From assembly GCA_030698625.1 (NCBI GenBank), contig JAUYMS010000028.1, forward strand, positions 3,854 through 67,853: DNA of 64,000 nt, read 5' to 3'. Positions 1 to 64,000 of the stretch are shown piece after piece. The stretch is from Candidatus Omnitrophota bacterium (lineage in GTDB: Bacteria; Omnitrophota; Omnitrophia; Omnitrophales; Aquincolibacteriaceae). The first letter of the stretch is position 1; each line of letters starts with the position of its first letter. A program made the translations under genes and the position numbers. A model generated the notes under the pieces. That model did no database searches and was not told the origin of the DNA. It saw nothing but the letters and a program-made list of their open reading frames with translations.

Positions 1-821
1 AGGAAGCGATTGCCACAGTGATTGATAGCGTCCGGAATGCGCTAAAGGGCACATCCCACACCTATGAGCTCCTTGTTGTGGATGATTGCTCGGACGATAA
101 GACCGTTGAGATCGCCGCGTCGAAGGGCGTGAAGGTCATTCGGCGGCGGATGAGAGGCGGTTCTGGATCCTCCCGCCGAACGGGTATCCGGGAATCGCAA
201 GGAGCGATCATCGTCATGCTTGATGCCGACGGCTCTTACGAAGCAGGAGATATTCCGCGGTTACTCGAATATTTCCCGGAGTACGACCAGGTTAATGGCG
301 CTAGAACAAGCGAGCAGGGTACGTTGAAGCTTCTGCGCACGCCGGCGAAGTGGATCATTCGAAAGCTCGCGTGTTATTTAACAAGCCAGAACATACCGGA
401 TTTGAATACCGGACTCAAGGCGTTCAAAAAAGATATCATGAAAAAGTACCTATGGGTACTCCCTGATGGGTTCTCATGCGTCACGACGATGACTCTGGCG
501 TTTCTAGCTAATGGCTTTGCCGTAAAATATATCCCTACGACGTATCACAAGCGGATAGGCAAATCGAAGTTTCATCCGGTAAAAGACACCGCTTCATACC
601 TCAATACAGTTGTTCGTATGGTGATGTACTTCAAACCCTTACGTGTTTTCATGCCCTTGGCTTTCGGGCTGCTTGCCTTTGGGCTGATTAAATCTGTTTT
701 GAGTCTTGTCTATACCTCGACGATTCAGGAGTCGGATATCATTATCATTATGACTGCTGTACTTCTTGGTGCCGTTGGGCTCCTCGCAGATTTGATTGTC
801 GCCTACCAGAATCGTGACTAG
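1..821 (+). CDS. GT2 glycosyltransferase with C-terminal TM helices, GtrB/CsbB-like; 5' end lies upstream of the window
   Basis: Reading frame is open to nt 1 with no upstream stop. Motifs LLVVDDCSDDKT and MLDADGSY(E) are GT2 DxD-type. The hydrophobic C-terminus (MPLAFGLLAFGLI..LGAVGLLADLIV) is typical of polyprenyl-phosphate hexose synthases. Confidence 0.8.
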   Translation, partial: EAIATVIDSVRNALKGTSHTYELLVVDDCSDDKTVEIAASKGVKVIRRRMRGGSGSSRRTGIRESQGAIIVMLDADGSYEAGDIPRLLEYFPEYDQVNGARTSEQGTLKLLRTPAKWIIRKLACYLTSQNIPDLNTGLKAFKKDIMKKYLWVLPDGFSCVTTMTLAFLANGFAVKYIPTTYHKRIGKSKFHPVKDTASYLNTVVRMVMYFKPLRVFMPLAFGLLAFGLIKSVLSLVYTSTIQESDIIIIMTAVLLGAVGLLADLIVAYQNRD

Positions 822-3141
822 ACGCTTCAAAGACTCCTTCGCCATTACTCTCATCATTGCCGCGATCGCGGTGGTGTTCTATGATCTCTTGACCCTGGAT
901 CAGGCCTTTCTTAGCGGGGATCACCGCGAACAGCAATATCCCTGGGCGTTTATATTTCAGGAGGCTCTGAGGGGCGGGCATCTACCGTGGTGGACACGTG
1001 CCATTCATTGCGGATTTCCAATCCTTGCGGAGGGGCAGATCGGTGCTTTTTACCCGGTCAACATCCTGTTCTACGCGCTCTTGCCCATCAAGTGGGCATA
1101 CAACTACAGCATTCTATTCCATTATGTCGTCGGCGGGCTGCTGTTCTACGCATACCTGCGTCGGTCTGGGCGTTCCACAGAAGCATCCTTTATCGCGGCC
1201 GTTATTTTCCTTTTTGGTTCCAGTCAAGGGGGATACTTTTATTATAATTACATCTCTCAGAAAGTAGTTATTTGGCTCCCGCTGACTCTTCTATTGATAG
1301 ATCGCCTGCGTGAGAGGAAGCAGGCGCTGGATGCGTTTCTGCTGTCGTTAGTATTTGCCTTACAGATATTTGGCGGGTATCTCCAAGTGGCGATTTACTC
1401 TGTTCTTTATTCATCAATCTATTTCCTTTTCTTCTGGTTTCGTGAGCGAAGCACGAAAGTGGTCCTCCTTTTTACGGCATCGGGGTTGCTGGCTATCTTT
1501 TTTTCGCTAGTCCAACTGCTGCCGACGCTTGAGCTTGCACTTCTCTCATCGCGAGCCGAGGCAGTGAAAGGGATAGCGTATCTGGGATCCGCTACACCCA
1601 TGGCCTGGCTAACGCTGTTTTTCCCGTCCTGGGATTCCTTCCTTAGGTCGGAGTTTTACGTGGGCATTTTGGGCCTATTTTTCGCAATCATGAGTTTTTC
1701 GGGAGAGAGGGATACAAAGCGTAATTTTTTTGTTTTCGGAGCAGCCCTTTTCTTTCTGCTGGCGTTGGGGCAGTACAGCCCCCTTTATGTGGGTATCGTG
1801 GAGATGACCGGGTTTAATGGGTTTCGCACTCCCATTAAATTTCTTTTTTTTGTGACTTTTTCAATGGGGGTCTTGGCGGCTTATGGCTGGGATTCATTTT
1901 TCCAGGAAACTCGAAGGGTGGGGGCGCTGAAGTCGTATCGTTTCTTTGTGATTGTGGTGGGCGCCATGGTCCTCGCTCCTCCGGTCATTGAGTTTGTCCT
2001 CACGGCTTTCCGAGAGACCTTTCTCCCGGTACTCAAGGATTATGTAACTGACCATATATTCGGAAGGCCGGGCCATCACCATTCGTTGGAACATTATATG
2101 AGTCAGGCGGTTTCTTTCTATGACAGTACAATTGATATGGTGACGCTTAAGAATAAATACACATTGAGTGCGTGGCTGTCGCTGGTAGTTGGTTTGGTGG
2201 TCGCGCTAGGGATGGGCCGAGCCGGTTTTAAATCGGTCCGCGGGGTACAGCTCCTGTGCACGTTACTTCTCTTTGTGGACCTGTTCTTTTATGGTTTTAA
2301 CAGCATCAAGCCGAACTATATGCCGTTCGATAGTATCGGGGACAAAAGGGGAGAATCCGCGATTGTCGACGAAATAAAGAAGGATCCGGGTCTGTTCAGA
2401 ATAAGCGAGGTCTACGGCGAGTTGTGGCATAACGACGTCTACCCGATGGTGCCTAGCTCTAATATGCTCCACGGGATCGATGATGTCGGGGCATACTCTC
2501 CGCTCGCCATGAAGGATTACGGTGCCTTCTTGAAGGGCTGGGCCTATGTCAATGATTCCCTCTCTGTCAATTTTGTGACGGCCGACGGTGTTCTTGCTAA
2601 TCTCGAGCGGCTGAGTTTGTTGAACGTGAAGTATATTCAGTCGACCGTTCCGTTGGAACATGAGGATCTGACTCTCTTGATGACCGACAAGGATGTCTTG
2701 CTGTATAGGAATGATGCGGTCCGCTCGCGAGCGCTATTCGCCCCGGGGATGAGAGGGCCGTCGAGTTTGGACCAGATCATGAAAGCGCGTCTTATCGATA
2801 TTCCGATCGAAAGTTATGAGAATCAGCGGGTCCGCATACAATTCGAGGCCGTAACCGACGGTCTTTTCTTGCTCTCAGACATGGCCTATCCGAATTGGGG
2901 GGTGCGTGTGAACGGTGCGGATTCAGCTGTTCTGAAATGGGCCGGTCTATTTCGCGCCGTGGAGGTTCGGCGGGGCGTAAACGACATCGTCTTTGAGTAC
3001 ACGCCGAGACTTTACCGATCCGTGGGTTTGGCGGCAGCGATGACGGCTATCTTGCTGAGCCTGTTCTTTTTGTCTCGATCAGTTCCTGCTTATACGCGAA
3101 GGTTGACGGCCGAGGTTAAAGGCCGGGGGGCAATCGGATGA
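796..3141 (+). CDS. YfhO-family GT-C membrane glycosyltransferase, 781 aa
   Basis: Many predicted TM helices. N-terminal YfhO-like block 'W...GFPILAEGQIGAFYPVNILFY' with a large C-terminal periplasmic domain. Overlaps the upstream GT2 by 26 nt. Confidence 0.7.
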   Translation: MSPTRIVTRRFKDSFAITLIIAAIAVVFYDLLTLDQAFLSGDHREQQYPWAFIFQEALRGGHLPWWTRAIHCGFPILAEGQIGAFYPVNILFYALLPIKWAYNYSILFHYVVGGLLFYAYLRRSGRSTEASFIAAVIFLFGSSQGGYFYYNYISQKVVIWLPLTLLLIDRLRERKQALDAFLLSLVFALQIFGGYLQVAIYSVLYSSIYFLFFWFRERSTKVVLLFTASGLLAIFFSLVQLLPTLELALLSSRAEAVKGIAYLGSATPMAWLTLFFPSWDSFLRSEFYVGILGLFFAIMSFSGERDTKRNFFVFGAALFFLLALGQYSPLYVGIVEMTGFNGFRTPIKFLFFVTFSMGVLAAYGWDSFFQETRRVGALKSYRFFVIVVGAMVLAPPVIEFVLTAFRETFLPVLKDYVTDHIFGRPGHHHSLEHYMSQAVSFYDSTIDMVTLKNKYTLSAWLSLVVGLVVALGMGRAGFKSVRGVQLLCTLLLFVDLFFYGFNSIKPNYMPFDSIGDKRGESAIVDEIKKDPGLFRISEVYGELWHNDVYPMVPSSNMLHGIDDVGAYSPLAMKDYGAFLKGWAYVNDSLSVNFVTADGVLANLERLSLLNVKYIQSTVPLEHEDLTLLMTDKDVLLYRNDAVRSRALFAPGMRGPSSLDQIMKARLIDIPIESYENQRVRIQFEAVTDGLFLLSDMAYPNWGVRVNGADSAVLKWAGLFRAVEVRRGVNDIVFEYTPRLYRSVGLAAAMTAILLSLFFLSRSVPAYTRRLTAEVKGRGAIG

Positions 3142-3242
3142 AGAATTGGATAATTGTGATTTGGGCGTTCAGCGTAATCCTGGTGTATTGCTGGAATATG
3201 TGGGTGAATAAGGTTGCGGAATCCGTGGGAGGGTTGCTGTGA
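3138..3242 (+). CDS. Candidate 34-aa hydrophobic micro-protein (MKNWIIVIWAFSVILVYCWNMWVNKVAESVGGLL)
   Basis: Found by manual translation. Its ATG overlaps the YfhO stop (ATGA at 3138-3141) and its TGA overlaps the GTG of the next gene (GTGA at 3239-3242). It is a single TM helix. Below the 60-aa cutoff of the ORF track. Confidence 0.3.
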   Translation: MKNWIIVIWAFSVILVYCWNMWVNKVAESVGGLL

Positions 3243-5092
3243 TTCTGTGGTTTGCAATGCCAGCTGTGACCTTCCTGTGTTTTAGTGCGGGGCGCCTGTG
3301 CATCACGAGATGGCGGATTACAATGGAGAAAGACGAGCAGGTGCTTTTCGGGACAGCGGTCGGCATGGGGATGCTTTCTTACGGCGTGCTTCTCCTCGGC
3401 CTTATGGGGCAACTCCGCCTGGTTTCTCTATGCGGATTGCTGATCGTTTTGTTGATTATGAGCGCGATGAACTGGGGACATTCCTGGGCGGCACTGAAAA
3501 GGGCGGTTGCCTTGTGGGAACCTAAAGCTCATCCGTGGAATACGGCTATTTTTTTAGGCAGCGGCCTATGTCTTGCGACTGCCTTTTTGGGCGTTCTTGC
3601 TCCGGAGACGACTAATGATTCTCTATGTTATCACCTCCATTTACCTAAACTTTTTTTAGTCTCGGGCACCATAGGGCCAATCCCGTACGAAGTGAATTCG
3701 TTGTTCCCGTTTTTTATGGAGATGCTTTATACGGCGGGATTGACTGTGGGAGGAGAGGCCCTTTCTAAGTATTTTCATTTCTTGACCGGAATCTTGGCAG
3801 CCATGGCAGTGCTGGTATACGCCCGTCGATACACTTCACGAGTCTATGCCTGGTGGGCGGCGCTGCTGTTTCTAACTACGCCCGGAATTATTAACCAGTT
3901 GTCTACGACTTACGTCGATGTTGGCCTGACATGCTACGGCGTACTTGCGTTGTACGGATACCTGCGTTGGCGTGAGACTCGTGAAACGAGCTGGGCCGTC
4001 CTCGCGGGGATGTGTGCCGGTTTTATGCTGAGCATCAAGTACCTGGCATTGATTGCGTGTCTCGGGATGGGCTTGTTGCTGATCTATGAATTAATTCGAA
4101 GGCGGCAGCTCCTGCGTGGGCTTATCTCGGTCATTCCGTGGTTCTTGATTCCGATGTGTCTGTGTGCGGGCTATTGGTATGTGCGTGCTTATGTGGAGCT
4201 GGGTAACCCCGTCTACCCGTATTTTTATTCGATCTTTAAAGCCGGGGATCCAACGATCCATTACAACGATATCGGTGTTTCGAAGAATATCCTTTCTTTT
4301 GTAGCGGTGCCGTGGCTAATGACCATGCGCCCGGATATTTTTGAAGGTTTTGGCGTGCAGATCGGACCCGGATATTTAGCGTTTCTGCCTTTGGCGTTCA
4401 TGTCGCGGAGCAAGATTCCAAATGCGGGGAGCTTGGCCTTTTTTAGTCTTTTCTATCTCGTGTGCTGGTTTTTCCTGGGGCAGAGCTTGAGATTTCTCTA
4501 CCCCATCCTGCCGGTCCTGGCAATGCTGATGGCGGGTGGTTTTGCCTACAGCTCTTCATTGGGCAATGTAGGGCGTTGGGTTCCGGCCATGGTGGCAGCT
4601 GTGATATGGATTCATGCGGGAGTTGCTTTCTATCATCATCGAAGCATTTATCAAGTCGCGCTGGGGCTTGAATCAGGCACTGAGTATCTCAGCAAGCGTG
4701 AGCGGAGTTTTGACGTCGCGCAATGGGTAAATAAGAACTTGGATGCAGACAGCAGAATCATGAACGTTGACGAGACTCACATGTACCACTTCGAACGGCC
4801 GATTGTACGCGAGATCGTCTATGCCGGCCGTACCGAATATTATGAGGGGGCCGAGTCGGCCGCGGATGTGGTTCGGCGTCTTCTGGCAGATGGTTTTACA
4901 CATATTCTGGACGTGAGTCGTCCGAGCGATGGGAGTCACTCCGGGCAGTCTCCTTTCCGGCTGCCCCGCCTTCTTCGGGAAGGGCAAAAGGAGCTTGCCC
5001 TTCATTTGGATCTCCTCTACACTCATGCGTTTAGAGAGGACTCTGGCGAGGCGGTGCGATACCGCCTGTATTATCTGAATCCCAGTATCTGA
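3239..5092 (+). CDS. PMT/ArnT-like GT-C membrane glycosyltransferase (GT39/GT83-like), 617 aa
   Basis: Polytopic membrane protein with a PMT_2-like hydrophobic architecture and a soluble C-terminal domain. GTG start. An alternative ATG at 3257 is possible. Confidence 0.6.
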   Translation: MILWFAMPAVTFLCFSAGRLCITRWRITMEKDEQVLFGTAVGMGMLSYGVLLLGLMGQLRLVSLCGLLIVLLIMSAMNWGHSWAALKRAVALWEPKAHPWNTAIFLGSGLCLATAFLGVLAPETTNDSLCYHLHLPKLFLVSGTIGPIPYEVNSLFPFFMEMLYTAGLTVGGEALSKYFHFLTGILAAMAVLVYARRYTSRVYAWWAALLFLTTPGIINQLSTTYVDVGLTCYGVLALYGYLRWRETRETSWAVLAGMCAGFMLSIKYLALIACLGMGLLLIYELIRRRQLLRGLISVIPWFLIPMCLCAGYWYVRAYVELGNPVYPYFYSIFKAGDPTIHYNDIGVSKNILSFVAVPWLMTMRPDIFEGFGVQIGPGYLAFLPLAFMSRSKIPNAGSLAFFSLFYLVCWFFLGQSLRFLYPILPVLAMLMAGGFAYSSSLGNVGRWVPAMVAAVIWIHAGVAFYHHRSIYQVALGLESGTEYLSKRERSFDVAQWVNKNLDADSRIMNVDETHMYHFERPIVREIVYAGRTEYYEGAESAADVVRRLLADGFTHILDVSRPSDGSHSGQSPFRLPRLLREGQKELALHLDLLYTHAFREDSGEAVRYRLYYLNPSI

Positions 5093-5100
5093 AAGGACTT

Positions 5101-6405
5101 ATGAAGGTTGCACTTATTGATCTGAAGGAGAGCCGTAACGGCTGTAATAATAAGGACAAGGCAGGCGGTTTCGGCAACAAGTCACACGGCGAAGATCTGA
5201 TCTCTCGCATTTATGCTTATTTTAAGCATAGTCAAGTCGATGTTCCCGTAATGCACTTTGGCTATATGGCCGCTATCTTTCGCCAGCATGGGCATACAGT
5301 CAAATTCTACGATGCAGAGCCCGAGGACGAGGAACTGGTCATCATGGCTTCCTCGATCGTTGGTTATGACGAAGAACTCTCGTTTGCTCGCCGCATCCAA
5401 AAGCCCGGCAGGAAGATCGGTTTCATCAACGCATTTGCCACTGTGAAGCCGGAGATCTTTCTCAATGCGTCAGACTTTGTGATTAAGGGGGAACCGGAGC
5501 AGGCCACGATTGAAATTGCCAAAGGGAACGTGAAGCCAGAGGGGGTGATTGACAGCGCCTTGATCTTTGACCTCGAGAGTCTTCCGTTTCCGGACTGGGA
5601 TGGTTTTCCTGTTTCCCGGTACGGCTATTACCCGGTCTTGAAGAAGAAACCGCTTATTTCTATCCTCACGAGCCGGGGCTGTTCGTTTGACTGCAGCTAT
5701 TGTCCGTATATGGTCACTCAGACGGAAAGGTGGCGCAGGCGTTCCGCCAAGCATGTCTGCGATGAAATTGAATACCTTCAAAAGAAGTACAAGGTGCGCA
5801 GCCTCGTTTTCCGCGACATCATGTACACCCAAAGCAAACAGCGCGCCATTCAGATTTCTGAGGAGATCATTCGGCGCGGAATTCGCGTCGAGTGGAGTTG
5901 TGAAACTCGAGCCGATTGCTTGGAAGAGGATACACTGAGACTACTCCACCGGTCGGGGCTGCGAGTTATTCACTTAGGGATCGAGTCGCCAGAGGATCAG
6001 ATCGTCAAAGATTCGGGACGCATCCCAATCAAAGAGATGCAACAGGAGAAGATCGTGCGGCTGTGCGAGAAGATCGGAATCGACGTTATCGGATTTTATA
6101 TCCTCGGCTTTGTCGCGGACACTCAGAAATCCATGCGGCGAACGATTGATTACGCCAAACATTTGAATACGCCTCTGGCGCAGTTCGATGTCATGACGCC
6201 GTATCCCGGTACAAAATTCTATGATGAGATGAGGGACCGTATCTTGAGCCACAATTGGAAGGAATACACAACCCATCATCCGGTCGTTCGACTGGATAAT
6301 GTCTCTCACGAAGAAGTGCTCGACTTCAAGAATCGCGCTTACCGGGAGTATTATTTTCGGTCGAGTTGGATGCTCAAGCACGGACTGAAGACCGTCCTCG
6401 GATAA
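5101..6405 (+). CDS. B12-binding domain radical SAM protein
   Basis: CxxxCxxC radical SAM cluster motif 'SRGCSFDCSYCPY'. N-terminal Rossmann-like B12-binding region. The fold is class B radical SAM. Confidence 0.8.
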   Translation: MKVALIDLKESRNGCNNKDKAGGFGNKSHGEDLISRIYAYFKHSQVDVPVMHFGYMAAIFRQHGHTVKFYDAEPEDEELVIMASSIVGYDEELSFARRIQKPGRKIGFINAFATVKPEIFLNASDFVIKGEPEQATIEIAKGNVKPEGVIDSALIFDLESLPFPDWDGFPVSRYGYYPVLKKKPLISILTSRGCSFDCSYCPYMVTQTERWRRRSAKHVCDEIEYLQKKYKVRSLVFRDIMYTQSKQRAIQISEEIIRRGIRVEWSCETRADCLEEDTLRLLHRSGLRVIHLGIESPEDQIVKDSGRIPIKEMQQEKIVRLCEKIGIDVIGFYILGFVADTQKSMRRTIDYAKHLNTPLAQFDVMTPYPGTKFYDEMRDRILSHNWKEYTTHHPVVRLDNVSHEEVLDFKNRAYREYYFRSSWMLKHGLKTVLG

Positions 6406-6419
6406 GCGGAGAGATCACC

Positions 6420-7322
6420 ATGATTGCAATCACCGGAGCCACAGGCTTCATCGGTGTGCATCTTATCAAGGCCCTGCAGGAAAGGGGGGTGGCGTTTCGC
6501 TGCCTCGTCCGCGCTAATTCCACTAGGGTGAGCCAAGTAAAGGCTCTGACCGAGCATGTCGTCCAGGTCGACTACAGTCGACCCGAGACTTTGCGTAAAG
6601 CGTTTACGGGGTGCGATGTCCTTGTACATGCCTTGGGTCTCATTAACGGGAGTGAGGAAGAACTGCGCGAGGCCAATATTGAGTGCCCGCGCAGAGTGTT
6701 TGAGGCCGCAACGAAGGCCTCGGTCGAGCGCGTTGTTTTTATCAGCTCCGTAGCCGCTTTGAGACGGCATGGACCCTATGGCGTGACCAAGTCCGAGGGT
6801 GAGGATGTGCTGAGGAGTTCCGGGATTCCCTACATCATTCTACGTCCGGCATACGTTTATGGGGTGGGTGACGAAAACAATACGGCTCTGATGCTGCGAA
6901 CCTTAAAACGATTCCCGGTGATCCCTGTACTGGGAGGCGGGCAGTTCCGGTTACAGCCCGTGTACGTCGACGACGTCTGCGATCTGATCGTTCAAGCGCT
7001 CAGATGCAAAACCTGGAATCGGGCGTACACGGTTGCAGGACCGGAACAGATTACATTGTGGTCCATGCTGAAGTTGCTTGCCGGAGGTCTCGGGGTGAGT
7101 CGACTTCTTGTACCGATCCCGCTAAAACCGGTTCAGGCGTTGATGCGTTTTTATCTTCGCTTTTTTCCCGAGACCAAGCTCCCGGCCAAGCAGATACTCG
7201 AGTTGGATAAACACGAGGCCTTTGATATCTCAGAGACACAATCGAATTTTAATTTTAAGCCCCGGCCTTTTCGCGAAGGGGTTGAGGGGATGTTTACCGG
7301 CGACCTATGTGCGGCATTGTAG
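6420..7322 (+). CDS. NAD(P)-binding NmrA/NDUFA9-like SDR, sugar epimerase/reductase family
   Basis: Motif 'IAITGATGFIGVHLIKAL' GxxGxxG. Start chosen at ATG 6420 with upstream GGAGAG. Confidence 0.7.
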   Translation: MIAITGATGFIGVHLIKALQERGVAFRCLVRANSTRVSQVKALTEHVVQVDYSRPETLRKAFTGCDVLVHALGLINGSEEELREANIECPRRVFEAATKASVERVVFISSVAALRRHGPYGVTKSEGEDVLRSSGIPYIILRPAYVYGVGDENNTALMLRTLKRFPVIPVLGGGQFRLQPVYVDDVCDLIVQALRCKTWNRAYTVAGPEQITLWSMLKLLAGGLGVSRLLVPIPLKPVQALMRFYLRFFPETKLPAKQILELDKHEAFDISETQSNFNFKPRPFREGVEGMFTGDLCAAL

Positions 7323-10143: not shown

Positions 10144-10164
10144 TCAGTTTTCGGTCGGGTGAGG

Positions 10165-10193
10165 TTGACTTTTTTTCAGCCCGCTGTTAGAGT
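10165..10193 (+). promoter_or_regulatory. Sigma70-like promoter TTGACT-N17-TAGAGT
   Basis: Read in the 59-bp gap 10144..10202 upstream of the epimerase gene. Confidence 0.4.
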
Positions 10194-10202
10194 GTTGCCC
10201 TT

Positions 10203-14880: not shown

Positions 14881-14883
14881 GTG

Positions 14884-15534: not shown

Positions 15535-15552
15535 GGGTCTCTCCTTTAGGGG

Positions 15553-16194: not shown

Positions 16195-16226
16195 TCGGTT
16201 TCTCCTTTAATTTACGCCTACTGGTT

Positions 16227-17252: not shown

Positions 17253-17401
17253 ATGGCTGGGTATTATATCGGCGCGATTCGGAGGTTGTAAAGCGGTTAT
17301 TTTTGTAATCCATGTAGGCACAATATCTTACGATGATGCTGTAAGTTATTTAAAACAATGCGCTTAGCTCGATATAAAGCTGAATGGCCCCTTAATAAGG
17401 G

Positions 17402-32799: not shown

Positions 32800-32806
32800 G
32801 GAATTC

Positions 32807-43368: not shown

Positions 43369-43459
43369 GGTGATAACTGTAACGGCAGATGATACTTGAT
43401 TCGATCGGGAACCTCAAGAACATGTGGTCAAGGTGGGATTTGACTCCTATAATAAAAAG

Positions 43460-47447: not shown

Positions 47448-47459
47448 AGGGAGAACCCA

Positions 47460-48071: not shown

Positions 48072-48073
48072 GC

Positions 48074-50067: not shown

Positions 50068-50075
50068 CGAGCGTC

Positions 50076-52338: not shown

Positions 52339-52339
52339 T

Positions 52340-56869: not shown

Positions 56870-56877
56870 GGAGCGTT

Positions 56878-57636
56878 ATGGAACTTGGTCTTGAAGGAAA
56901 AACGGCATTAATAGTGGGCGCAAGCCGCGGCATCGGACGGGCCGCAGCAATAACGCTCGCACAATACGGTGCGCAGATTACTGCGGTTGCCCGCTCGAAA
57001 GACGCACTGACCTCCCTGATCACAGGGCTTGGCGGAGAGGCCAAAGGACATTTGGGTATCGCCAAGGATCTCATGCCGGCAGAGGGTCCCGCAGAGATTC
57101 TCAGACAGTTGCAGGAAATGGGGCGCGACATCGACATTGTCATCCACTGTTTGGGCGGAACGCTCGGAGTCAAAGAACCGTTTTGTGACCCGGAGGCATG
57201 GCGCCGGGTTTTTCGTCTAAACCTTGATATTGCCGTAGAACTTAACCGTTATCTTATTCCGTTGATGCAGAAAAGAAAATGGGGCCGTGCCCTGCACGTC
57301 TCGTCAATCGCGGCAACGCTCACGCGAGGCTCTCTGGCATATTGTGCTGCAAAGGCTGCGTTGAATGCGTATGCGAGAAATCTCGGCTGCACGGTTGCCA
57401 GCGACGGTGTCGTGATTTCTGCTTTAATGCCGGGGGCGGTTCGATTCGACGATAATCCATGGGATAAGCTCTCAAAAGAGAAGCCCGAGCAGGCGGCGGC
57501 GTATCTGGAAGAGCGAATGGCGATCAAACGTTTTGCCAAGCCCGAGGAAATATCGGATTTTATTGCCTTTATGTGTTCCGAAAAGGCGGAGTTTGCGACG
57601 GGTGCCGTCGTGCCGATTGACGGGGGTTCGTGGTGA
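56878..57636 (+). CDS. Classical SDR oxidoreductase
   Basis: 'ALIVGASRGIGRAAA' motif. Confidence 0.75.
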   Translation: MELGLEGKTALIVGASRGIGRAAAITLAQYGAQITAVARSKDALTSLITGLGGEAKGHLGIAKDLMPAEGPAEILRQLQEMGRDIDIVIHCLGGTLGVKEPFCDPEAWRRVFRLNLDIAVELNRYLIPLMQKRKWGRALHVSSIAATLTRGSLAYCAAKAALNAYARNLGCTVASDGVVISALMPGAVRFDDNPWDKLSKEKPEQAAAYLEERMAIKRFAKPEEISDFIAFMCSEKAEFATGAVVPIDGGSW

Positions 57637-57655
57637 AGGTGTCTCTGTGGTGAAA

Positions 57656-58576
57656 ATGAAGACAAAACGGCAGCTGGGTATTTGCGACAGCCGCCTTGCA
57701 AGTTCAATACTTGGCGATTTTCTGATCTTGTTGGAGGAGCTCCAGATTAATTCGGCAATTCGTCAGATAGAGGCGCCGACTGATATTGCCATTCTCGGGG
57801 ATAATCCCGGATCGGATTTTCTCGCGATGGCGAAGGGTTTCAATGGAGTAGGGGAAATCTTTGTGCTTGCGTCCTATCGGGAACTCGAGGCCTTGATGGC
57901 CGAATCGGTCTATGAATACACTCCCTGGCCGGGGCTCGGCCCTGAGGGGGTATCGGGTTATCAATATGGCTATACGCTCTTCATCCAGGATTATTTCGGA
58001 AAGACGGGCGCAATTCCCTCGCTTGCACTCAAACCGGAATATCGCACTTGGGCGTGTGATTGGCTTAGGGAACAGGCCGGTTCCGTGAACACTATTGCCG
58101 TTCACCTGAAGAATAAGATCCGGCCTTCGGGGAAACCCGACTGGTACAACGCCCGGTTGGACGAATGGGAGACATTTTTTAGAACGATTCGCGGCCGTTA
58201 TGATGTGAAGTTCATCCTGGTTGGTAATGAAAGGGTGCCCGATGGGATTCGTAATCTCGAGAATATAATCGTGACGCACGAATGCGGCGGTACGATATTG
58301 AAAGACCTGGCTTTAATTGAGAACACACAGGCCTTTATGGGGGTTGCCAGCGGGCCCTGCCAGATGGCCATGTTTGGCCGACGGCCCTATGTTATTTTCA
58401 AGAACCCCGAACGGCATGTCGACCGGATGTTTGAAGAGCTCGGGAACCGGAATCAGTACGTTTTTGCTGCGCCCACGCAGAGATTTTTGCGGCGCTTCGA
58501 AACGAGTGCGACGTTGCTCGAAGAATTCGAAGCTGTTTATGCCGGCATTGAGACCACCGTTACACAAGGAAATTAA
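57656..58576 (+). CDS. Candidate GT9-like (heptosyltransferase family) glycosyltransferase
   Basis: C-terminal 'FMGVASGPCQMAMFGRRPYVIF' resembles the GT9 'DSGPMHLAAALG.P.VALFG' segment. Start chosen at ATG 57656. Confidence 0.45.
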   Translation: MKTKRQLGICDSRLASSILGDFLILLEELQINSAIRQIEAPTDIAILGDNPGSDFLAMAKGFNGVGEIFVLASYRELEALMAESVYEYTPWPGLGPEGVSGYQYGYTLFIQDYFGKTGAIPSLALKPEYRTWACDWLREQAGSVNTIAVHLKNKIRPSGKPDWYNARLDEWETFFRTIRGRYDVKFILVGNERVPDGIRNLENIIVTHECGGTILKDLALIENTQAFMGVASGPCQMAMFGRRPYVIFKNPERHVDRMFEELGNRNQYVFAAPTQRFLRRFETSATLLEEFEAVYAGIETTVTQGN

Positions 58577-58577
58577 T

Positions 58578-59426
58578 ATGACAAACAGTCAAGAAAAACG
58601 CTTTACCGATAAGGTCGTCGCAGTTACGGGTAGTGCTCGAGGCATCGGTAAGAACATTGCGGCTGCATTTGCCGGAGAAGGCGCCTTTGTTTTTATTTGC
58701 GATATAAACACGGAAATGGGGAAGGCGACCGAAGACGAGTTTCGCAATCGCGGTCTGGCCTGTGAGTACCTGAAAGTGGATTTAGCCAAGAGCGGTGCTG
58801 CGGCAAAAATGGTGCAAGAGATCGTAAAGCGGAAAGGCTGTTTGGATGTGCTCGTCAACAATGCGCGCTCACGGCATCGTGTTTCGATGCTGGAAGAGAC
58901 CGAAGAATCCTGGGAGCAAGGGATGGCCGTTACCCTCAAAGGGGCATTTTTCGCCTCCCAGGAAGCGATCCGGGTCATGTCCGAAAGGTCCGGCGGCAGC
59001 ATTGTCAACATCAGCTCGGTGATGGCGGAAATGACATGCCATGAATCGCCCGTTTATCACATTGCGAAGGCCGGCGTGTCGCATATGACCCGTTACTTTG
59101 CAACTCATGGATCACCGCTGGGCGTGCGCGTCAATGCGGTTGTGCCGGGTTTCATCGTCCAGGACGAAAATCGCGAACGTTACGCCGGAACAGATAACAA
59201 AAGTTACCGGGAGGTCGGCGAATTCACGCATCCGGTGCGCACCGTAGGCAAATCGGATGATGTCGCTTACGCCGTGCTTTTCCTTGCCTCGACCGAGTCG
59301 TGTTTTATCACGGGGCAATGCCTCGTCGTCGACGGCGGCGCGACATTGCAGGAACAAAACAGCTTGATACATCGGTTTTCAAAAACGGGGCATGAGGGAC
59401 TTGAGAAGGCGGGCAAACGCATATGA
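58578..59426 (+). CDS. Classical SDR oxidoreductase (FabG-like)
   Basis: 'VVAVTGSARGIGKNIA' motif and YxxxK. Confidence 0.75.
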   Translation: MTNSQEKRFTDKVVAVTGSARGIGKNIAAAFAGEGAFVFICDINTEMGKATEDEFRNRGLACEYLKVDLAKSGAAAKMVQEIVKRKGCLDVLVNNARSRHRVSMLEETEESWEQGMAVTLKGAFFASQEAIRVMSERSGGSIVNISSVMAEMTCHESPVYHIAKAGVSHMTRYFATHGSPLGVRVNAVVPGFIVQDENRERYAGTDNKSYREVGEFTHPVRTVGKSDDVAYAVLFLASTESCFITGQCLVVDGGATLQEQNSLIHRFSKTGHEGLEKAGKRI

Positions 59427-60106
59427 CGGAAACGGGCAGCAAAATCGGACGTGAAATTAATTTGATGGACCGGTATCCGAGAAGTAAGCGGCCGATCGAC
59501 GAGCGGGCAATGCTAATCACCGAAGAGCATCGAAAGATAGCTCGCCGCTTTGAAAAGGATTTTTTCGACGGCGACCGCCTCTATGGATATGGAGGATATC
59601 GTTACCACCCGCGTTTTTGGAAGGAAACCGTGATGCGCTTCCGCGACTTTTACGGTTTGAAGCCCGATGCGGCGGTACTGGACGTGGGATGCGGTAAAGG
59701 CTTTATGCTCCATGATTTTAAGGAGTTGATGCCCGATATGACGGTTGCGGGAATTGATGTTTCGGAATACGCCATCGAGAATGCGATGGAGACGATGAAG
59801 CCGTATGTGCGTGTGGGGAATGCTAAAGACTTGCCTTACGAAGAAAACTCCTTTGATTTGGTGATTTCGATTAATACGGTGCACAACCTGCCGCCGGAGG
59901 AATGTAAGCGATCGCTCAGGGAGCTCGCGAGAGTATCACGTGCCCATGCATTTATCATTGTCGATGCTTGGAGAAATGACGCCGAGAGAGACAGCATGAT
60001 GAAGTGGAATTTGACGGCACTTACCTACAGCCATGCCGATGACTGGAAGAAACTCTTCCGAGAGGCCGGATACGGCGGCGATTATTATTGGTTTATCGCC
60101 GAATGA
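59423..60106 (+). CDS. Class I SAM-dependent methyltransferase
   Basis: SAM motif I 'VLDVGCGKGFM'. Confidence 0.75.
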   Translation: MTETGSKIGREINLMDRYPRSKRPIDERAMLITEEHRKIARRFEKDFFDGDRLYGYGGYRYHPRFWKETVMRFRDFYGLKPDAAVLDVGCGKGFMLHDFKELMPDMTVAGIDVSEYAIENAMETMKPYVRVGNAKDLPYEENSFDLVISINTVHNLPPEECKRSLRELARVSRAHAFIIVDAWRNDAERDSMMKWNLTALTYSHADDWKKLFREAGYGGDYYWFIAE

Positions 60107-60116
60107 GCCGAGGAAA

Positions 60117-61937
60117 ATGACACAAACTACAGCAAATCCCAATATTTCGCACGAGGCACTCAAGGCTTACGGAGAGTTTATAGCCGGGCTCAAGATCCGC
60201 AGGCCCAAAGAGCTTGTTCTCATCAATCCGCAGCTTGTGCCGGAGGGGGCATTTGATCCGCTTGTGGCCCGTAACCGGGGCTATTATGCGTTCCCGCCGG
60301 TAGGCCTGTTATATATCGCGGCAGTTGCCAAGAAGGTGCACCCAGAACTCAAGGTGCGCATCGTCGATCTTAATCTTGAAGTCTTGCGCCGCGCTCAGCG
60401 GGACGATTTTCGCTATGATGTTTGGAAGGACATCATTGCCGATGTCTTGAATTCCTGTGAGGCCCCTCATGTGGGAGTGACATGCATGTTCGGTGCCACG
60501 AAACCCATATTTCTTGAAGTGACACGCTGGTTACGCGAAGAATTCCCCGACTATCCGATTTTAGCCGGGGGTGTTCAGGCGACCTACGATGCGGTCGAGC
60601 TTTTGGAAAGTAATTGCTGTGATCTTCTGTTTCGGAGAGAGGCCGAAGACCAGTTCTTAAATTATATGCTGAATTTACTCGGTGATGATTCGGTATTTCC
60701 TGTTGGGGCGCTCTTTCGCTTCGACGGAAAGACGTATGAACTCGGCCGTGCCGAGGGGGATCCTCCCGTCGACTGGGATATCAGTGAGTTCTACGAAATG
60801 ATTGATGTGAAGGACTATTACCTGTACGGATCGTTGGCAGCGTTTTCCCGGTATAACGGAGAAGACAAACCGTTCGCTACGGTGCTGACCAATCGGGGAT
60901 GTCGTGCCCGCTGTACTTTTTGCACGGTTCGCGATTTTAACGGGTTTGGTGTCCGCGGACGTCCTATCCAAAGTGTCATCGACGAAATAAAATTTCTTGT
61001 ATCCGAGAAGGGTGTAAAGCAGATTGACTGGTTGGATGATGATTTGCTTTGGGATCCGGCACGGGCCGTTGAACTCTTCAAAGGGTTAGCTGAACAGGTT
61101 CCCGGACTGGAATGGATCTGTAATAACGGGTTGATTTCGGCCGCGGTTACCGACGAGATCATGGAGTGGATGGTCAAATCAGGCCTCAGAGCATTTAAGA
61201 TTGGAATCGAATCGGGTAATGATGAGATGCTGCATAAGATCAAGAAGCCCACGACGAAGGTGAAGCTGCGGCAAGGGCGAGCCTTGTATAGAAAATACCC
61301 TGAGGTATTTGTGAGTGCCAACTTGATCGTGGGATTTCCGAATGAAACATTTTCGCAGATGCTCGACACATTCAATTTTGCCAATGAACTGAAATGGGAT
61401 TGGTCAAGTTTTTACATTTGCCAGCCGCTGAAGGGCACTGAGATGTTTTCCGCATTTCAGGCATTAGGAGATGACCGTACCGAGGTCGAAAGTTATGACA
61501 AGACGCTCAACCCGGGCCGCGCGGCGGCCCGAGGCGAATTCGGATACCGTTTCAAGGAGGGGGGAGAGGTGGTGGCGACCGGACGTGATGTGTTTAAGCT
61601 GCCGCCGGACTTGATCCCGAGCCAAGAGCAAAACAAGGAGATTTGGTTTGCGTTCAACTTGGTTGCCAATTTTTTGGAAAACTTCAATTTCGGGCCGGGG
61701 GGGAATCCAAAAAAAATCGTCAAATGGTTAGAGTCGATTGCTCATGCCTATCCGTACGATGCGTCGATGTGTGCCGGATTGGCGAAGGGTTATAGCCTCC
61801 TGGGCCGCGTGGATCGCGAGCGGTTTTACCGCGAAAAATTTATCGAGATCCTTCGGGAGTCGTCTTATTGGCAGAAGCGGACCAAGGAATTTCCGGAGCT
61901 TCTTGAAATGGCGGATGTGCCCGCGGTGATGTTGTGA
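60117..61937 (+). CDS. B12-binding domain radical SAM protein (second copy)
   Basis: 'NRGCRARCTFCTV' CxxxCxxC and an N-terminal B12-binding-like domain. Start at ATG 60117. Confidence 0.8.
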   Translation: MTQTTANPNISHEALKAYGEFIAGLKIRRPKELVLINPQLVPEGAFDPLVARNRGYYAFPPVGLLYIAAVAKKVHPELKVRIVDLNLEVLRRAQRDDFRYDVWKDIIADVLNSCEAPHVGVTCMFGATKPIFLEVTRWLREEFPDYPILAGGVQATYDAVELLESNCCDLLFRREAEDQFLNYMLNLLGDDSVFPVGALFRFDGKTYELGRAEGDPPVDWDISEFYEMIDVKDYYLYGSLAAFSRYNGEDKPFATVLTNRGCRARCTFCTVRDFNGFGVRGRPIQSVIDEIKFLVSEKGVKQIDWLDDDLLWDPARAVELFKGLAEQVPGLEWICNNGLISAAVTDEIMEWMVKSGLRAFKIGIESGNDEMLHKIKKPTTKVKLRQGRALYRKYPEVFVSANLIVGFPNETFSQMLDTFNFANELKWDWSSFYICQPLKGTEMFSAFQALGDDRTEVESYDKTLNPGRAAARGEFGYRFKEGGEVVATGRDVFKLPPDLIPSQEQNKEIWFAFNLVANFLENFNFGPGGNPKKIVKWLESIAHAYPYDASMCAGLAKGYSLLGRVDRERFYREKFIEILRESSYWQKRTKEFPELLEMADVPAVML

Positions 61938-62830
61938 CGGTAAAACATTTAGGCCGCATCGCGGTCATTGGGGCATCGGGACTGATCGGGAGCGCCGTGA
62001 TGCGGTATTTCGAAGGGCGCCGAGGAGTCGACGCCAGCGGGTACTCATCAACGGATATTGACCTGCGTAAAGCGGAGAGCGTAGAGATCCTCGGGCGACT
62101 TGCGGATGAGGATACGACGCTGCTTATCGTTTCCGGCGTAATTTCAGATAAGAGCGGTGACCATGTCGCCAATTTTGCGGCCAACGTAGAAATGGCCGTC
62201 CATGTGGCGAGTTTTCTGGAGAACCACCGGGTGCGCAAATGCGTTTATTTCGGCGCCTTTTCCGTTTACGGTGATCATCAAACGAACCTGGCGATAGACG
62301 AACAGACGGCGGTGTCTCCTTCGACCTATTATGCCTTGGGCAAATACGCGTCTGAGCGCTTGATTCAGAATGCGGCTCAAAACAGCGGAAGTCCTTTCCT
62401 GGGATTACGGATTTCACGCGTGTACGGCCCCGGAGTTCAATATGCCAGTTACGGACCGGCTGCCTTTATTCGATCGATTCTGGAGTCCGGGAGAGTTCAG
62501 ATATACGGTCAGGGGGAAGAGACGCGGGAGATGGTTTACTTGGACGATCTCTGCAGGGCTGTCGGCGGATTGTTGGAAGCCGATGGCGCTGGGATCTATA
62601 ATCTAACAAGCGGCAAGAGTCCAAACTTTTCACGTGTCCTGGAAATCATAAGAGACATCATTCCTGATCCCTTTGATGTGGAGAGCGTAAACAGGACACG
62701 CCCTCTTGTGGACCAGCGCTGTAGCGGCGAGAAGTTGAATTCTATAATGCCGAATTTCAGGTGGACATCTTTCGAGGATGGTTTGAAGGCGACTTATGAC
62801 TATTATGCGGGGATCCGTCATGTCGCGTGA
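61934..62830 (+). CDS. NAD(P)-dependent sugar epimerase/reductase (SDR)
   Basis: 'IAVIGASGLIGSAV' motif. GTG start overlapping the upstream TGA. Confidence 0.7.
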   Translation: MTVKHLGRIAVIGASGLIGSAVMRYFEGRRGVDASGYSSTDIDLRKAESVEILGRLADEDTTLLIVSGVISDKSGDHVANFAANVEMAVHVASFLENHRVRKCVYFGAFSVYGDHQTNLAIDEQTAVSPSTYYALGKYASERLIQNAAQNSGSPFLGLRISRVYGPGVQYASYGPAAFIRSILESGRVQIYGQGEETREMVYLDDLCRAVGGLLEADGAGIYNLTSGKSPNFSRVLEIIRDIIPDPFDVESVNRTRPLVDQRCSGEKLNSIMPNFRWTSFEDGLKATYDYYAGIRHVA

Positions 62831-63860
62831 AACAAAGGCCGCAGTATTATGTGAACTGGGGAAACCTTTGCAGTTGATGTCGCTTACACTTCCCTCGTTG
62901 AAGCCGGGGCAGGTTCTCGTCGAGATGGCTTACAGCGGCGTATGTCACACACAGCTTCTGGAGGCTCGCGGAAGGCGAGGGCTGGATCCGCATTTGCCGC
63001 ATACTCTGGGACATGAGGGCGCGGGAACGGTGTGTGAAATCGGGCCTGGGGTCGAGAAGGTGAAGCCCGGTGACCGCGTAGTCCTGACTTGGATTAAAGG
63101 GCAAGGACAGGATGTGCCGTCCACCCAGTATAAAAGTGACATGGGACGCGTGAATTCAGGCGCCATCAGTACATTTATGCGCCATACTGTTACGTGCGAA
63201 AATCGGCTGATTCCGATTCCGGAGACAATGCCGCTCAGGGAAGCTGCGCTGCTTGGCTGTGCCGTTCCCACCGGCAGCGGCATTATTCACAATGCGGCGC
63301 AGGTAAACAGTGGCAGCACGATCGCCGTTTTTGGAATCGGCGGTATCGGATTAAGCGTCATTCTGGCGGCAAAGGCAACTGCTCCTAAAATGCTGATTGC
63401 CGTCGATGTAGTCGACGCGAAGCTTCGGCATGCGACACAACTCGGGGCAACGCATGAAATTAATGCCGCCAAGGTTGAGGCGTTGGCGGTCCTGCGGGAA
63501 CTCACCGGAGGGCGGGGCGTCGACTATGCGATCGAAGCGGCCGGCCGGCGCGTGACAATGGAAACAGCCTTCTCTTCGGTAAGGGAGCAGGGCGGTTTAT
63601 GTGTTATTGCCGGAAATCTTCCGCACGGGGAACGGATATCGATTGACCCCTTTGATCTCATTAAGGGCAAGCGGGTGATCGGAACCTGGGGAGGGGAAAC
63701 CTCTCCGGATCGGGACATTCCGAAGTACGTTGAGCGTTATCTGGCGCGGGAATTAGATCTGGAATCACTCATTACCCATGAGTATTCGTTAGATCAAGCC
63801 AATCAGGCCCTAGACGATCTCGAAGAGGGAAAGGTCGGGCGGGGAATAATTAAATTTTAG
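62820..63860 (+). CDS. Zinc-dependent medium-chain alcohol dehydrogenase-family oxidoreductase
   Basis: 'GVCHTQL...GHEGAG' Zn-binding motifs and a 'GIGGIG' Rossmann fold. Confidence 0.8.
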   Translation: MSRETKAAVLCELGKPLQLMSLTLPSLKPGQVLVEMAYSGVCHTQLLEARGRRGLDPHLPHTLGHEGAGTVCEIGPGVEKVKPGDRVVLTWIKGQGQDVPSTQYKSDMGRVNSGAISTFMRHTVTCENRLIPIPETMPLREAALLGCAVPTGSGIIHNAAQVNSGSTIAVFGIGGIGLSVILAAKATAPKMLIAVDVVDAKLRHATQLGATHEINAAKVEALAVLRELTGGRGVDYAIEAAGRRVTMETAFSSVREQGGLCVIAGNLPHGERISIDPFDLIKGKRVIGTWGGETSPDRDIPKYVERYLARELDLESLITHEYSLDQANQALDDLEEGKVGRGIIKF

Positions 63861-63873
63861 GCGGATATTGTTT

Positions 63874-64000
63874 GTGACTTATCAATCGAGTCCAGAAATT
63901 TCTTTTATAGTTCCGTGTTACAACGAAGCGGGTAATATTGCTTCGACGCTGGAAACAATTATGACATTCATGAAAGATCATGATTGTTTGTATGAAATCC
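63874..64000 (+). CDS. GT2 glycosyltransferase, 5' fragment that continues beyond the window end
   Basis: Manual translation gives 'SFIVPCYNEAGNIASTLETI', the classic GT2 N-terminus. GTG start at 63874. Confidence 0.5.
   Translation, partial: MTYQSSPEISFIVPCYNEAGNIASTLETIMTFMKDHDCLYEI

Follow-up and report, generated by a model that had tools for sequence, protein, structure and literature searches.

A conserved array of GT-C glycosyltransferases accompanies a Wzx flippase in an Omnitrophota glycan island

We analysed a 64,000-nucleotide (nt) stretch of DNA from a Candidatus Omnitrophota bacterium (contig JAUYMS010000028.1 of assembly GCA_030698625.1, positions 3,854 to 67,853; hereafter the window, numbered from its first letter), in which a Wzx-type flippase lies among several glycosyltransferases (GTs) of the GT-C type. 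The 56 non-overlapping open reading frames (ORFs) of the window were scanned against Pfam, selected ORFs also against NCBIfam, and membrane proteins were called by a hydropathy scan. Nearly all of the genes belong to glycan biosynthesis in these scans. GC content is even (~0.50-0.55), the window contains no tRNA genes, and no intergenic gap exceeds 231 nt, so there is no space for an overlooked gene longer than about 76 codons. Only six ORFs carry two or more hydrophobic segments: Wzx, four GT-C enzymes, and a GT2 protein with two transmembrane helices. None of the 56 ORFs matched the Pfam families Bac_transf (WbaP), Glycos_transf_4 (WecA), Wzy or Wzy_C, Wzz, Maf or STT3, and neither the window nor its flanks gave a match to ABC2_membrane or ABC_tran, the two families of a Wzm/Wzt exporter. 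A first-pass annotation of the window had described one flippase against four GT-C enzymes, with no initiating phosphoglycosyltransferase (PGT), Wzy, Wzz or ABC exporter, and the Pfam and hydropathy scans confirm this description. Because this is an observation of gene content, no chance statistic is applicable to it.

The GT-C enzymes are found in the company of GT2 proteins. At the left edge of the window lies a GT2 of the polyprenyl-phosphate glycosyltransferase type (1..821, + strand; Pfam Glycos_transf_2 76.6 bits), which is truncated at its 5' end by the window start. Its complete version (P0001, 308 aa, 100% identical) ends in two transmembrane helices typical of GtrB and ArnC, and its best NCBIfam matches are AglJ, dolichyl-phosphate (Dol-P)-hexose transferase and ArnC. 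It is followed by a 781-aa YfhO-family GT-C (796..3141, +; Pfam YfhO 101 bits, nine hydrophobic peaks) and a 617-aa PMT/ArnT-type GT-C (3239..5092, +; Pfam PMT 39.6 and PMT_2 29.1 bits, nine hydrophobic peaks). Farther along, a 246-aa GT2 (17441..18181, +; Pfam 99.8 bits) is a candidate Ppm/DPM-like polyprenyl-phosphate sugar synthase, with Dol-P-hexose transferase, PgfS, PpgS, AglJ and ArnC as its best NCBIfam matches; an S-adenosylmethionine (SAM) methyltransferase gene (18178..19164, +; Pfam Methyltransf_23) separates it from a 529-aa PMT_2-type GT-C (19252..20841, +; Pfam PMT_2 37 bits, at least seven hydrophobic peaks). The fourth GT-C, a second YfhO-family protein of 829 aa, is encoded on the opposite strand (40879..43368, −; Pfam YfhO 34.5 bits at the C-terminus, ten hydrophobic peaks). 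All four exceed their Pfam gathering scores, as does the 510-aa Wzx-type flippase of the MOP superfamily for both of its matches (38350..39882, +; Polysacc_synt_3 64.6 and Polysacc_synt 44.4 bits, eleven hydrophobic peaks). Sequence searches of the PDB with the four GT-Cs and Wzx gave no meaningful match. The two polyprenyl-phosphate-sugar synthases proposed earlier are candidates here: both GT2s match such NCBIfam families best, although far below the equivalog cut-offs; AglJ, the best NCBIfam match of three GT2s, is matched at 57-100 bits against a cut-off of 325.

Could one of the missing functions be hidden in a protein assigned to another family? The second YfhO was considered as a disguised Wzy, ligase or PGT and rejected, as it aligns end to end with the 781-aa YfhO (E 2e-18). 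The unannotated ORFs were rejected for the same roles: a 380-aa ORF proved to be WbuX, and the 641-aa and 324-aa ORFs have no transmembrane segments. A dedicated small flippase of the GtrA, ArnEF or GtcA kind is likewise absent, with no GtrA- or EamA-type ORF in the window.

We then read the flanks on Logan contigs of sample SRR13727534, which gave 3,852 nt upstream and 9,860 nt downstream and brought the inspected island to 77.7 kb. Sequence identity places these contigs in the genome of the window: L001 agrees with it letter for letter over 11,205 nt, and the window start lies within L006. Upstream lie a Ppm-like GT2 (238 aa), a flippase-like protein (313 aa) and a 574-aa GT-C of the PMT/GT87 type. 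The flippase-like protein has seven transmembrane segments, belongs to LPG_synthase_TM and matches TIGR00374 with 82 bits, above the cut-off; it and Wzx are the candidates for the flipping step in place of a GtrA-type protein. The downstream flank opens with a 245-aa GT2 whose gene starts inside the window (63874..64000, +) and is cut by the window end; on L001 it occupies 11079-11816, and its N-terminal GT2 region gives mixed NCBIfam matches. There follow two small membrane proteins, a GT4, a methyltransferase and a CDP-alcohol phosphotransferase (CDP-OH_P_transf), and then a GDSL-TPR protein, a DUF2079 protein with eight hydrophobic peaks, a 249-aa Ppm-like GT2, a methyltransferase and a GT87 enzyme. 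The two small membrane proteins, 178 and 199 aa with 2-3 transmembrane segments each, are adjacent to one another between the GT2 and GT4 genes (L001 11813-12897) and have no family match. In total, the 77.7 kb hold seven GT-C-type enzymes, 4-5 Ppm-like GT2s and two flippase candidates, and four of the seven GT-Cs adjoin a Ppm-like GT2 or stand one methyltransferase gene away from it.

The flanks did not supply the missing parts. The first-pass annotation had allowed that these might lie outside the window, yet the genes called in the 3.9 kb upstream and the 9.9 kb downstream include no PGT, Wzy, Wzz or ABC exporter. Its impression that the locus is unlike a standard O-antigen or capsule cluster is borne out to that extent, for the Wzx/Wzy and the ABC type alike, with no Wzy, Wzz or WbaP in the same flanks. 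No oligosaccharyltransferase of the STT3 or Wzy_C families gave a Pfam match in window or flanks, and no Maf, flagellar, flagellin, pilin or S-layer gene was found in the 77.7 kb or in eight related loci.

On comparison with contigs of other Omnitrophota, the island is composed of two backbones conserved in this group, with strain-specific sugar cassettes between and inside them. The first, backbone A, comprises the upstream GT2-238, flippase-like protein and GT-C-574, followed by GT2-308, YfhO-781, PMT-617, GT2-246 and PMT_2-529. It is matched gene by gene, at 31-71% identity, in compact clusters on contigs L009 and L013 and in part on L003 and L004; a further context, known from a gene listing without its DNA, has the same kind of GT2/GT-C array. 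Orthologues of YfhO-781 in these four contigs are 37-49% identical. Orthologues of PMT-617 are 31-42% identical, and in L009 the PMT_2 protein is 32% identical to PMT_2-529 and the GT2 gene adjoining it encodes a protein 36% identical to GT2-246. A radical SAM enzyme encoded beside the YfhO-781/PMT-617 pair (5101..6405, +; Pfam Radical_SAM) is conserved with it, at 63% identity to a partial ORF that ends L003. In those contigs, backbone A stands directly after rmlABCD, UGD and epimerase genes, and in L009 after LptD. GT2-308 is far more conserved than its GT-C neighbours (31-49%, with the adjoining YfhO at 37-49%): more than 100 cluster representatives, several labelled Omnitrophota or Omnitrophica, are 65-80% identical to it, and its close homologues carry the JGI name "polyisoprenyl-phosphate glycosyltransferase". 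This conservation suggests that GT2-308 produces a polyprenyl-phosphate-sugar donor of common, housekeeping use. A GTDB scan with the YfhO protein returned two relatives only (46-49% identity), and a scan of JGI metagenomes returned none.

Backbone B comprises WbuX, a 641-aa protein, Wzx and a 419-aa GDSL protein; the downstream GT4, methyltransferase and CDP-OH_P_transf; and the GDSL-TPR protein, DUF2079 protein and GT2-249. It matches contigs L007, L010 and L011 at 27-69% identity. Wzx orthologues in all three are 31-33% identical, WbuX orthologues in L007 and L010 50%, and GDSL-419 is 43% identical to the product of the GDSL gene after Wzx in L011. The GT4/methyltransferase/CDP-OH_P_transf trio is 52-55% identical between L001 (12908-15536) and L011 (14478-17094), where it is followed by a gene of the heptosyltransferase family GT9. 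By contrast, the pseudaminic acid (Pse)/acyl module, both heptose routes, the second YfhO with its GDSL neighbour, and a block of dehydrogenase E1, DAO, DegT and B12 radical SAM genes have no counterpart in the related loci; the 829-aa YfhO, with no orthologue there, is strain-specific. The related contigs carry 3-6 GT-C-type genes, or unannotated genes at the same positions, within ~10-20 kb, so the pattern is typical of the lineage rather than an accident of the window. In line with this picture of backbones and variable cassettes, a preprint on complete Omnitrophota genomes places lipopolysaccharide (LPS)/capsule glycosyltransferase and polysaccharide genes among the hypervariable loci (10.64898/2026.06.07.730766).

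Two features of the relatives stand apart from this comparison. The conserved GT2 of L009 and L013 (10001-10867 in both) is always followed by a protein of ~535-543 aa without a Pfam match (L009/L013 10860-12467, and also in the context of P0066), for which there is no counterpart at that position in the window genome. In L010, Wzx is fused to a SAM methyltransferase domain in a single 683-aa protein (9905-11956).

The gene directly before Wzx (36422..38347, +; locus tag Q8R76_05010) encodes the 641-aa protein, which is soluble. This gene begins with a 4-nt overlap at the WbuX stop codon, and 2 nt separate its end from the start of Wzx. The protein has no match in Pfam, in NCBIfam, or in the PDB with either a single sequence or a profile. 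A word-indexed search gave just two homologues, and repeating it with a 62-sequence profile gave the same three proteins and no others. A full HMMER profile search, by contrast, recovered 1078 cluster representatives at E≤1e-3, of which 260 at E≤1e-30, nearly all of ~600-650 aa. In the 62-sequence alignment, residues D73, H384 (in a QHG motif) and K505 are invariant and would suit an acid/base pair. Individual family members match Glyco_trans_1_2 (10/62) or DUF6716 (6/62) weakly, the latter being a putative glycosyltransferase family. The AlphaFold2 model built from the same alignment has a predicted local distance difference test score (pLDDT) of 90.7 and a predicted template-modelling (TM) score of 0.92, compared with a pLDDT of 41 from a three-sequence alignment. 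Foldseek searches of the PDB with this model gave 89 matches at E≤1e-3, led by GT-B enzymes and including GT4/BshA/PglA, OtsA, TarM, UDP-GlcNAc 2-epimerases and a polysialyltransferase. TM-scores on the query are modest (0.25-0.38), consistent with a GT-B core that carries a large helical insertion. From the model we are confident that the protein has a GT-B fold, and it belongs to a large unannotated family. One relative from an Omnitrophica metagenome-assembled genome, P0124, is a fusion of 1274 aa and has two stretches that match the family profile, the better one at residues 643-1273.

We also considered what this protein might transfer. The Wzx gene comes directly after the 641-aa-family gene in four of five contexts, and in four of five the family gene lies near nonulosonic acid (NulO) genes or genes of typical NulO modification (NeuB, CTP_transf_3, WbuX, formyltransferase). 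Because of this association and the coupling to Wzx, we regard the protein as a candidate Pse/NulO transferase, one that, judging from gene context, probably adds Pse to a lipid-linked glycan just before flipping. The Pse genes of the window are translationally coupled to the GT-B enzyme and Wzx, which argues that Pse enters a lipid-linked glycan and is not attached directly to flagellin.

The Pse cassette itself lies between the two backbones and begins with a gene for an HTH_17 (excisionase/AlpA-like) DNA-binding protein (20963..21265, +; Pfam HTH_17 38.8 bits). This gene overlaps the pseB start, at the junction of backbone A and the strain-specific cassette; it may serve in regulation or be left over from mobility of the cassette. 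The Pse core (21249..25914, +) encodes PseB, PseC, a PseG-GNAT fusion and PseI. The first-pass annotation had proposed a Pse pathway with acetamidino and probable glyceroyl decoration, and each element is upheld. PseB (521 bits, cut-off 407), PseC (467, 423), PseG (209, 153) and PseI (456, 340) all exceed their NCBIfam cut-offs, and the GNAT domain at residues 339-469 of the PseG fusion would take the role of PseH. The acetamidino group is accounted for by the 380-aa WbuX-type N-acetyl sugar amidotransferase (35283..36425, +; TIGR03573 314 bits, cut-off 203) and by HisH-like and HisF-like subunits of the WbuY/WbuZ type, encoded with a class III aminotransferase and a methyltransferase at 31375..35273 (+; Pfam). 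The glyceroyl-type decoration is represented by an acyl module (25896..30681, +; Pfam) of a GNAT, an FkbH protein (NCBIfam FkbH domain 288 bits, cut-off 146), an acyl carrier protein (ACP)-like ORF, a MaoC dehydratase fused to a short-chain dehydrogenase/reductase (SDR), and a GFO oxidoreductase. The ACP-like ORF (28248-28505, +; 85 aa), between the FkbH gene and the MaoC-SDR fusion, falls below the 100-aa threshold of the ORF listing; reading its sequence revealed a serine motif like that of acyl carrier proteins, ENWDSASHINMILSLESEF (WDSASH). Its presence alongside the two GNATs suggests N-acylation of Pse with a glyceryl or hydroxyacyl group delivered by an ACP. A CMP-sugar synthetase (30678..31523, +; Pfam CTP_transf_3 128.8 bits) is presumed to be the PseF equivalent and has only weak KdsB-family matches in NCBIfam.

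Two heptose routes had been proposed as well; both are present, matched at the family level only. The GDP-heptose-type route (13527..17321, −; Pfam) comprises a GmhB-like HAD phosphatase, an HddC-like nucleotidyltransferase, a protein like transaldolase or fructose-6-phosphate aldolase, a GmhA-like SIS isomerase and an HddA-like GHMP kinase. HddA (222 bits) and HddC (132 bits) are the best NCBIfam matches, below the equivalog cut-offs. The transaldolase/aldolase-like gene lies inside this operon (14884-15534, −), and its product presumably supplies sedoheptulose 7-phosphate. The ADP-heptose-type route (44896..49102, +; Pfam) encodes an epimerase, an HldE-like bifunctional enzyme, a GmhA-like isomerase (gmhA family 79-87 bits, below cut-offs) and a second epimerase. 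In the HldE-like enzyme (45906-47447, +), the nucleotidyltransferase occupies residues 11-163 and the kinase residues 196-496, a domain order reversed relative to that of E. coli HldE, and the NCBIfam scores are below the cut-offs.

The remaining genes of the window also point to sugar tailoring. A sugar-nucleotide block (6366..13559, +; Pfam) encodes an epimerase, an AsnB-like amidotransferase, a methyltransferase, a dehydratase/epimerase, a member of the UDP-Glc/GDP-Man dehydrogenase family and a GFO/MocA oxidoreductase. At 49099..52338 (+), the two E1 subunits of a thiamine pyrophosphate-dependent 2-oxoacid dehydrogenase (E1 alpha, Pfam E1_dh 236 bits; E1 beta, Transket_pyr/Transketolase_C) flank an FAD oxidoreductase (DAO 186 bits) within the tailoring operon; this set, near the DegT pair and the B12 radical SAM gene, possibly adds a C-branch or an acyl group to a sugar. 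It is followed by two DegT/DnrJ/EryC1 sugar aminotransferases (52223..54615, +; Pfam 378 and 362 bits). A deoxy-sugar block (55874..63860, +; Pfam), with gene boundaries taken from the identical Logan contig, encodes a 4,6-dehydratase family protein, an SDR, the 324-aa ORF, a second SDR, a methyltransferase, a B12-binding radical SAM enzyme, an epimerase and a Zn-dependent alcohol dehydrogenase. GDSL/SGNH proteins with N-terminal membrane or signal segments number four in the 77.7 kb. Within the window, they include a hydrolase or acyltransferase at 39839..40948 (−; Lipase_GDSL_2 36.3 bits, transmembrane peaks at residues 29-40), GDSL-419 of backbone B at 43424..44683 (+; 48 bits), and a weak GDSL-like protein at 54612..55868 (+; 28.7 bits, below the gathering score, with a transmembrane peak at residue 19). 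The extensive periplasmic tailoring foreseen by the first-pass annotation fits these four proteins and the seven GT-Cs. A promoter and terminator scan of the 13-22 kb region was not clearly above shuffled expectation.

Based on these observations, we propose that the island, which spans at least 78 kb with the window as its middle part, directs the synthesis of a lipid-linked envelope glycan that Wzx flips and that several three-component modules then lengthen in the periplasm. We favour this reading with modest confidence. Its observed basis is the gene content, the family assignments, synteny, conservation and the modelled fold of the 641-aa protein, from which we predict the substrates, the sequence of steps, the topology and the acceptor. 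Cytoplasmic enzymes would activate some ten unusual sugars: CMP-Pse with acetamidino and ACP-delivered acyl groups, GDP- and ADP-type heptoses, uronic or amido sugars, and deoxy sugars that are amino-substituted, methylated and possibly C-branched. A few soluble transferases (the downstream GT4 and GT2s and the 641-aa GT-B protein) would assemble a short lipid-linked glycan, the GT-B enzyme probably adding Pse from CMP-Pse before the adjacent Wzx flips the product. Initiation could rely on a PGT encoded elsewhere in the genome or on a GT2 that uses polyprenyl monophosphate, in the manner of the archaeal AglJ pathway. In each module, a Ppm/GtrB-like GT2 would charge polyprenyl phosphate with a sugar. 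The flippase carrying this polyprenyl-phosphate-sugar across the membrane would be the LPG_synthase_TM-like protein and possibly Wzx as well, and a dedicated GT-C (YfhO, PMT, PMT_2, DUF2079 or GT87) would transfer the sugar to the growing glycan. Membrane-anchored GDSL/SGNH enzymes may add or remove acyl groups. A periplasmic module design of this kind would have no need for Wzy, Wzz or an ABC exporter.

Three-component glycosylation by a Ppm/GtrB-like GT2, a flippase and a GT-C is well established, and the YfhO and PMT/ArnT-type families of the island occur in such systems as well (PMC11127046, PMC8035078, PMC5836110). The likeness to GtrA/GtrB/GtrC, ArnC/ArnEF/ArnT, CsbB/GtcA/YfhO, GacI/GacL and the pentofuranose systems lies in the pairing of GT2 with GT-C and in the flippase candidate nearby. 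Three differences are evident. The island brings together seven GT-Cs and 4-5 synthase-type GT2s instead of a single module; it has no GtrA-family flippase, with the LPG_synthase_TM-like protein and Wzx as candidates in its place; and its array belongs to the conserved core of a locus in a diderm candidate phylum, unlike a seroconversion unit that is accessory or carried by phage.

Several points weigh against this proposal. The GT2s, the heptose enzymes and the CMP-sugar synthetase stay under the equivalog cut-offs of the families after which they are named, and, with no GtrA-type flippase present, the flipping of polyprenyl-phosphate-sugars by Wzx or the LPG_synthase_TM-like protein is a guess. 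The fold of the 641-aa protein cannot reveal its donor, and its best Foldseek matches include UDP-GlcNAc 2-epimerases besides transferases. The flanks that were read amount to ~14 kb of a 132-kb contig, so that a PGT, Wzy, WaaL or oligosaccharyltransferase could lie farther away or elsewhere in the genome. Substrates, acceptor and topology are all predictions from sequence. The LptD and GT9 neighbours in the relatives lean weakly toward an LPS-type or other envelope glycolipid acceptor, each link resting on one contig; on balance, the acceptor is somewhat more likely to be a glycolipid of the envelope, LPS-like or other, than a protein.

A protein acceptor was what the first-pass annotation had suggested, in the form of S-layer, flagellin or other protein glycosylation. 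The glycan, or sugars carried on polyprenyl phosphate, would then be destined for an S-layer, flagellin, pilin or other surface protein, with the PMT-type GT-Cs acting as protein O-glycosyltransferases. Two to three of the GT-Cs do match the PMT family, the GT2s score best against an enzyme of archaeal S-layer N-glycosylation, AglJ, and Pse is a classical sugar of flagellin and pilin. In Haloferax volcanii, an AglJ-type GT2 starts the Agl pathway on polyprenyl monophosphate without a PGT, the Wzx-like MOP proteins AglR/Agl15 have been linked to flipping, and the final sugar is attached extracellularly by AglS, a Dol-P-mannose-dependent transferase (PMC3892788). The combination in the island of GT2s, a Wzx-like flippase and polyprenyl-phosphate-sugar transferases, again with no PGT, mirrors this S-layer pathway (AglJ, AglD, AglR/Agl15, AglS). 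Moreover, the PVC-group relative Kuenenia has a heavily O-glycosylated S-layer (PMC5088730), and streptococcal GtrB plus GT-C systems are reported to O-glycosylate membrane proteins (PMC11092751). However, the island is bacterial, no AglB/STT3 or S-layer gene was found, and the AglJ scores are far under the cut-off. Nor did the window, flanks or eight related loci contain a Maf protein, a PglB/AglB/PglL-type or Wzy_C-type oligosaccharyltransferase, a flagellin or a pilin. The Pfam PMT family also spans lipid-A-modifying ArnT-type enzymes, so a PMT match does not imply a protein acceptor. Finally, the coupling of Pse genes to Wzx via the GT-B enzyme points to lipid-linked assembly, and the backbones of the relatives adjoin LptD and a GT9 gene. 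We consider the earlier observation real and correctly described and its protein target unproven; as an explanation of the whole island, protein glycosylation is unlikely, if still deserving of weight.

A conventional Wzx/Wzy O-antigen or capsule locus would require that the PGT, Wzy, Wzz and ligase be encoded elsewhere and that the GT-C/GT2 pairs be clustered side-branch modifiers of the seroconversion type. Wzx is present, sugar pathways typical of O-antigens are abundant, the inspected flank is only ~14 kb, and in enterobacteria the initiating WecA is encoded outside the O-antigen cluster. The placement of LPS/capsule glycosyltransferase genes among hypervariable Omnitrophota loci is also in keeping with such a locus (10.64898/2026.06.07.730766). 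Indeed, the island resembles Pse-containing Wzx/Wzy O-antigen loci in its Wzx, its complete Pse pathway, its WbuX/Y/Z-type acetamidino genes and its many NDP-sugar tailoring genes. It differs from them in lacking PGT, Wzy and Wzz in or adjoining it, in its very few Leloir transferases, and in a presumed Pse transferase from an unannotated GT-B family. Neither Wzy nor Wzz is found in the 77.7 kb or in the syntenic loci of at least five other Omnitrophota contigs, and the count of seven GT-Cs to only some three Leloir transferases that are not Ppm-like inverts the usual ratio. The GT2/GT-C array is, furthermore, a conserved core of the locus rather than a variable addition, as its GT2 keeps 65-80% identity over more than 100 cluster representatives. 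Taken together, these features make a conventional locus decidedly unlikely.

The downstream trio bears on a third explanation, a phospholipid-anchored lipoglycan like the phosphatidylinositol mannosides, lipomannan (LM) and lipoarabinomannan (LAM) of mycobacteria, in which the CDP-alcohol phosphotransferase would make an inositol or polyol anchor, the GT4 would prime it, Wzx would flip it and the GT-Cs would extend it. The mycobacterial pathways, including arabinogalactan (PgsA1, PimA/B, Ppm1, PimE, Mpt, Emb/Aft GT-Cs), likewise use many GT-Cs fed by polyprenyl-phosphate-sugars. GT87 (the PimE family), GT4 and CDP-alcohol phosphotransferase co-occur in the island together with DUF2079 and Ppm-like GT2s; the NCBIfam matches of the GT4 include glycolipid-anchor GTs and MshA, an inositol-phosphate GT; the trio is conserved as described above; and the best NCBIfam matches of CDP-OH_P_transf, weak as they are, are archaetidylinositol-phosphate and phosphatidylinositol-phosphate synthases. 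We nevertheless hold this explanation to be improbable. Those synthase matches reach only 52.3 bits (cut-off 180) and 46.6 bits (cut-off 170) over the shared CDP-alcohol motif region (residues 25-138), and the enzyme is not a phosphatidylinositol-phosphate synthase equivalog; decorating the glycan with a phospho-alcohol would be an equally plausible role for it. A gene for inositol-phosphate synthase was not seen, and the genes central to this explanation are located beyond the window. The host is a diderm PVC-group bacterium with a Wzx and with Pse and heptose chemistry foreign to mycobacterial systems.

The assembly proposed here, Wzx-dependent and lipid-linked with three-component GT-C glycosylation, is a variation on known machinery and not a categorically new system. 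What is unusual is how many modules there are, how far GT-C enzymes outnumber Leloir enzymes where the opposite is the rule, that the array is kept as a core locus across a candidate phylum, and that the GT-B partner of Wzx is unannotated. A bolder version can be formulated, in which the main envelope glycan of Omnitrophota is built mostly in the periplasm by at least seven GT-Cs fed with polyprenyl-phosphate sugars, acting on a primer linked to polyprenyl monophosphate or to a phospholipid, with involvement of the conserved GT4/methyltransferase/CDP-alcohol phosphotransferase trio, in place of the usual undecaprenyl-pyrophosphate-linked repeat unit. Such a pathway would be a diderm counterpart of LM/LAM assembly or of the lumenal extension of glycans in the eukaryotic endoplasmic reticulum, and the 641-aa protein would found a new family of NulO-adding GTs that act before Wzx flipping. 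We regard this version as speculative and, taken as a whole, doubtful.

We found no paper on pseudaminic acid or GT-C arrays in Omnitrophota, nor one on the samples from which the DNA came. Members of this phylum are widespread, very small and largely uncultured, and some are predatory or host-dependent; to our knowledge, their surface chemistry is essentially uncharted. The locus suggests an unusual division of labour in building that surface, with few cytoplasmic transferases and many periplasmic GT-Cs, in a multi-GT-C architecture conserved across related Omnitrophota genomes. A conserved core with strain-variable sugar cassettes is the pattern expected for a surface under selection by phage, prey or host. 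The 641-aa family, with more than 1000 clusters, paired with Wzx and often found with NulO genes, offers a concrete, testable candidate for the missing class of transferases for Pse and legionaminic acid, a class that would be useful for glycoengineering and for the annotation of metagenomes.

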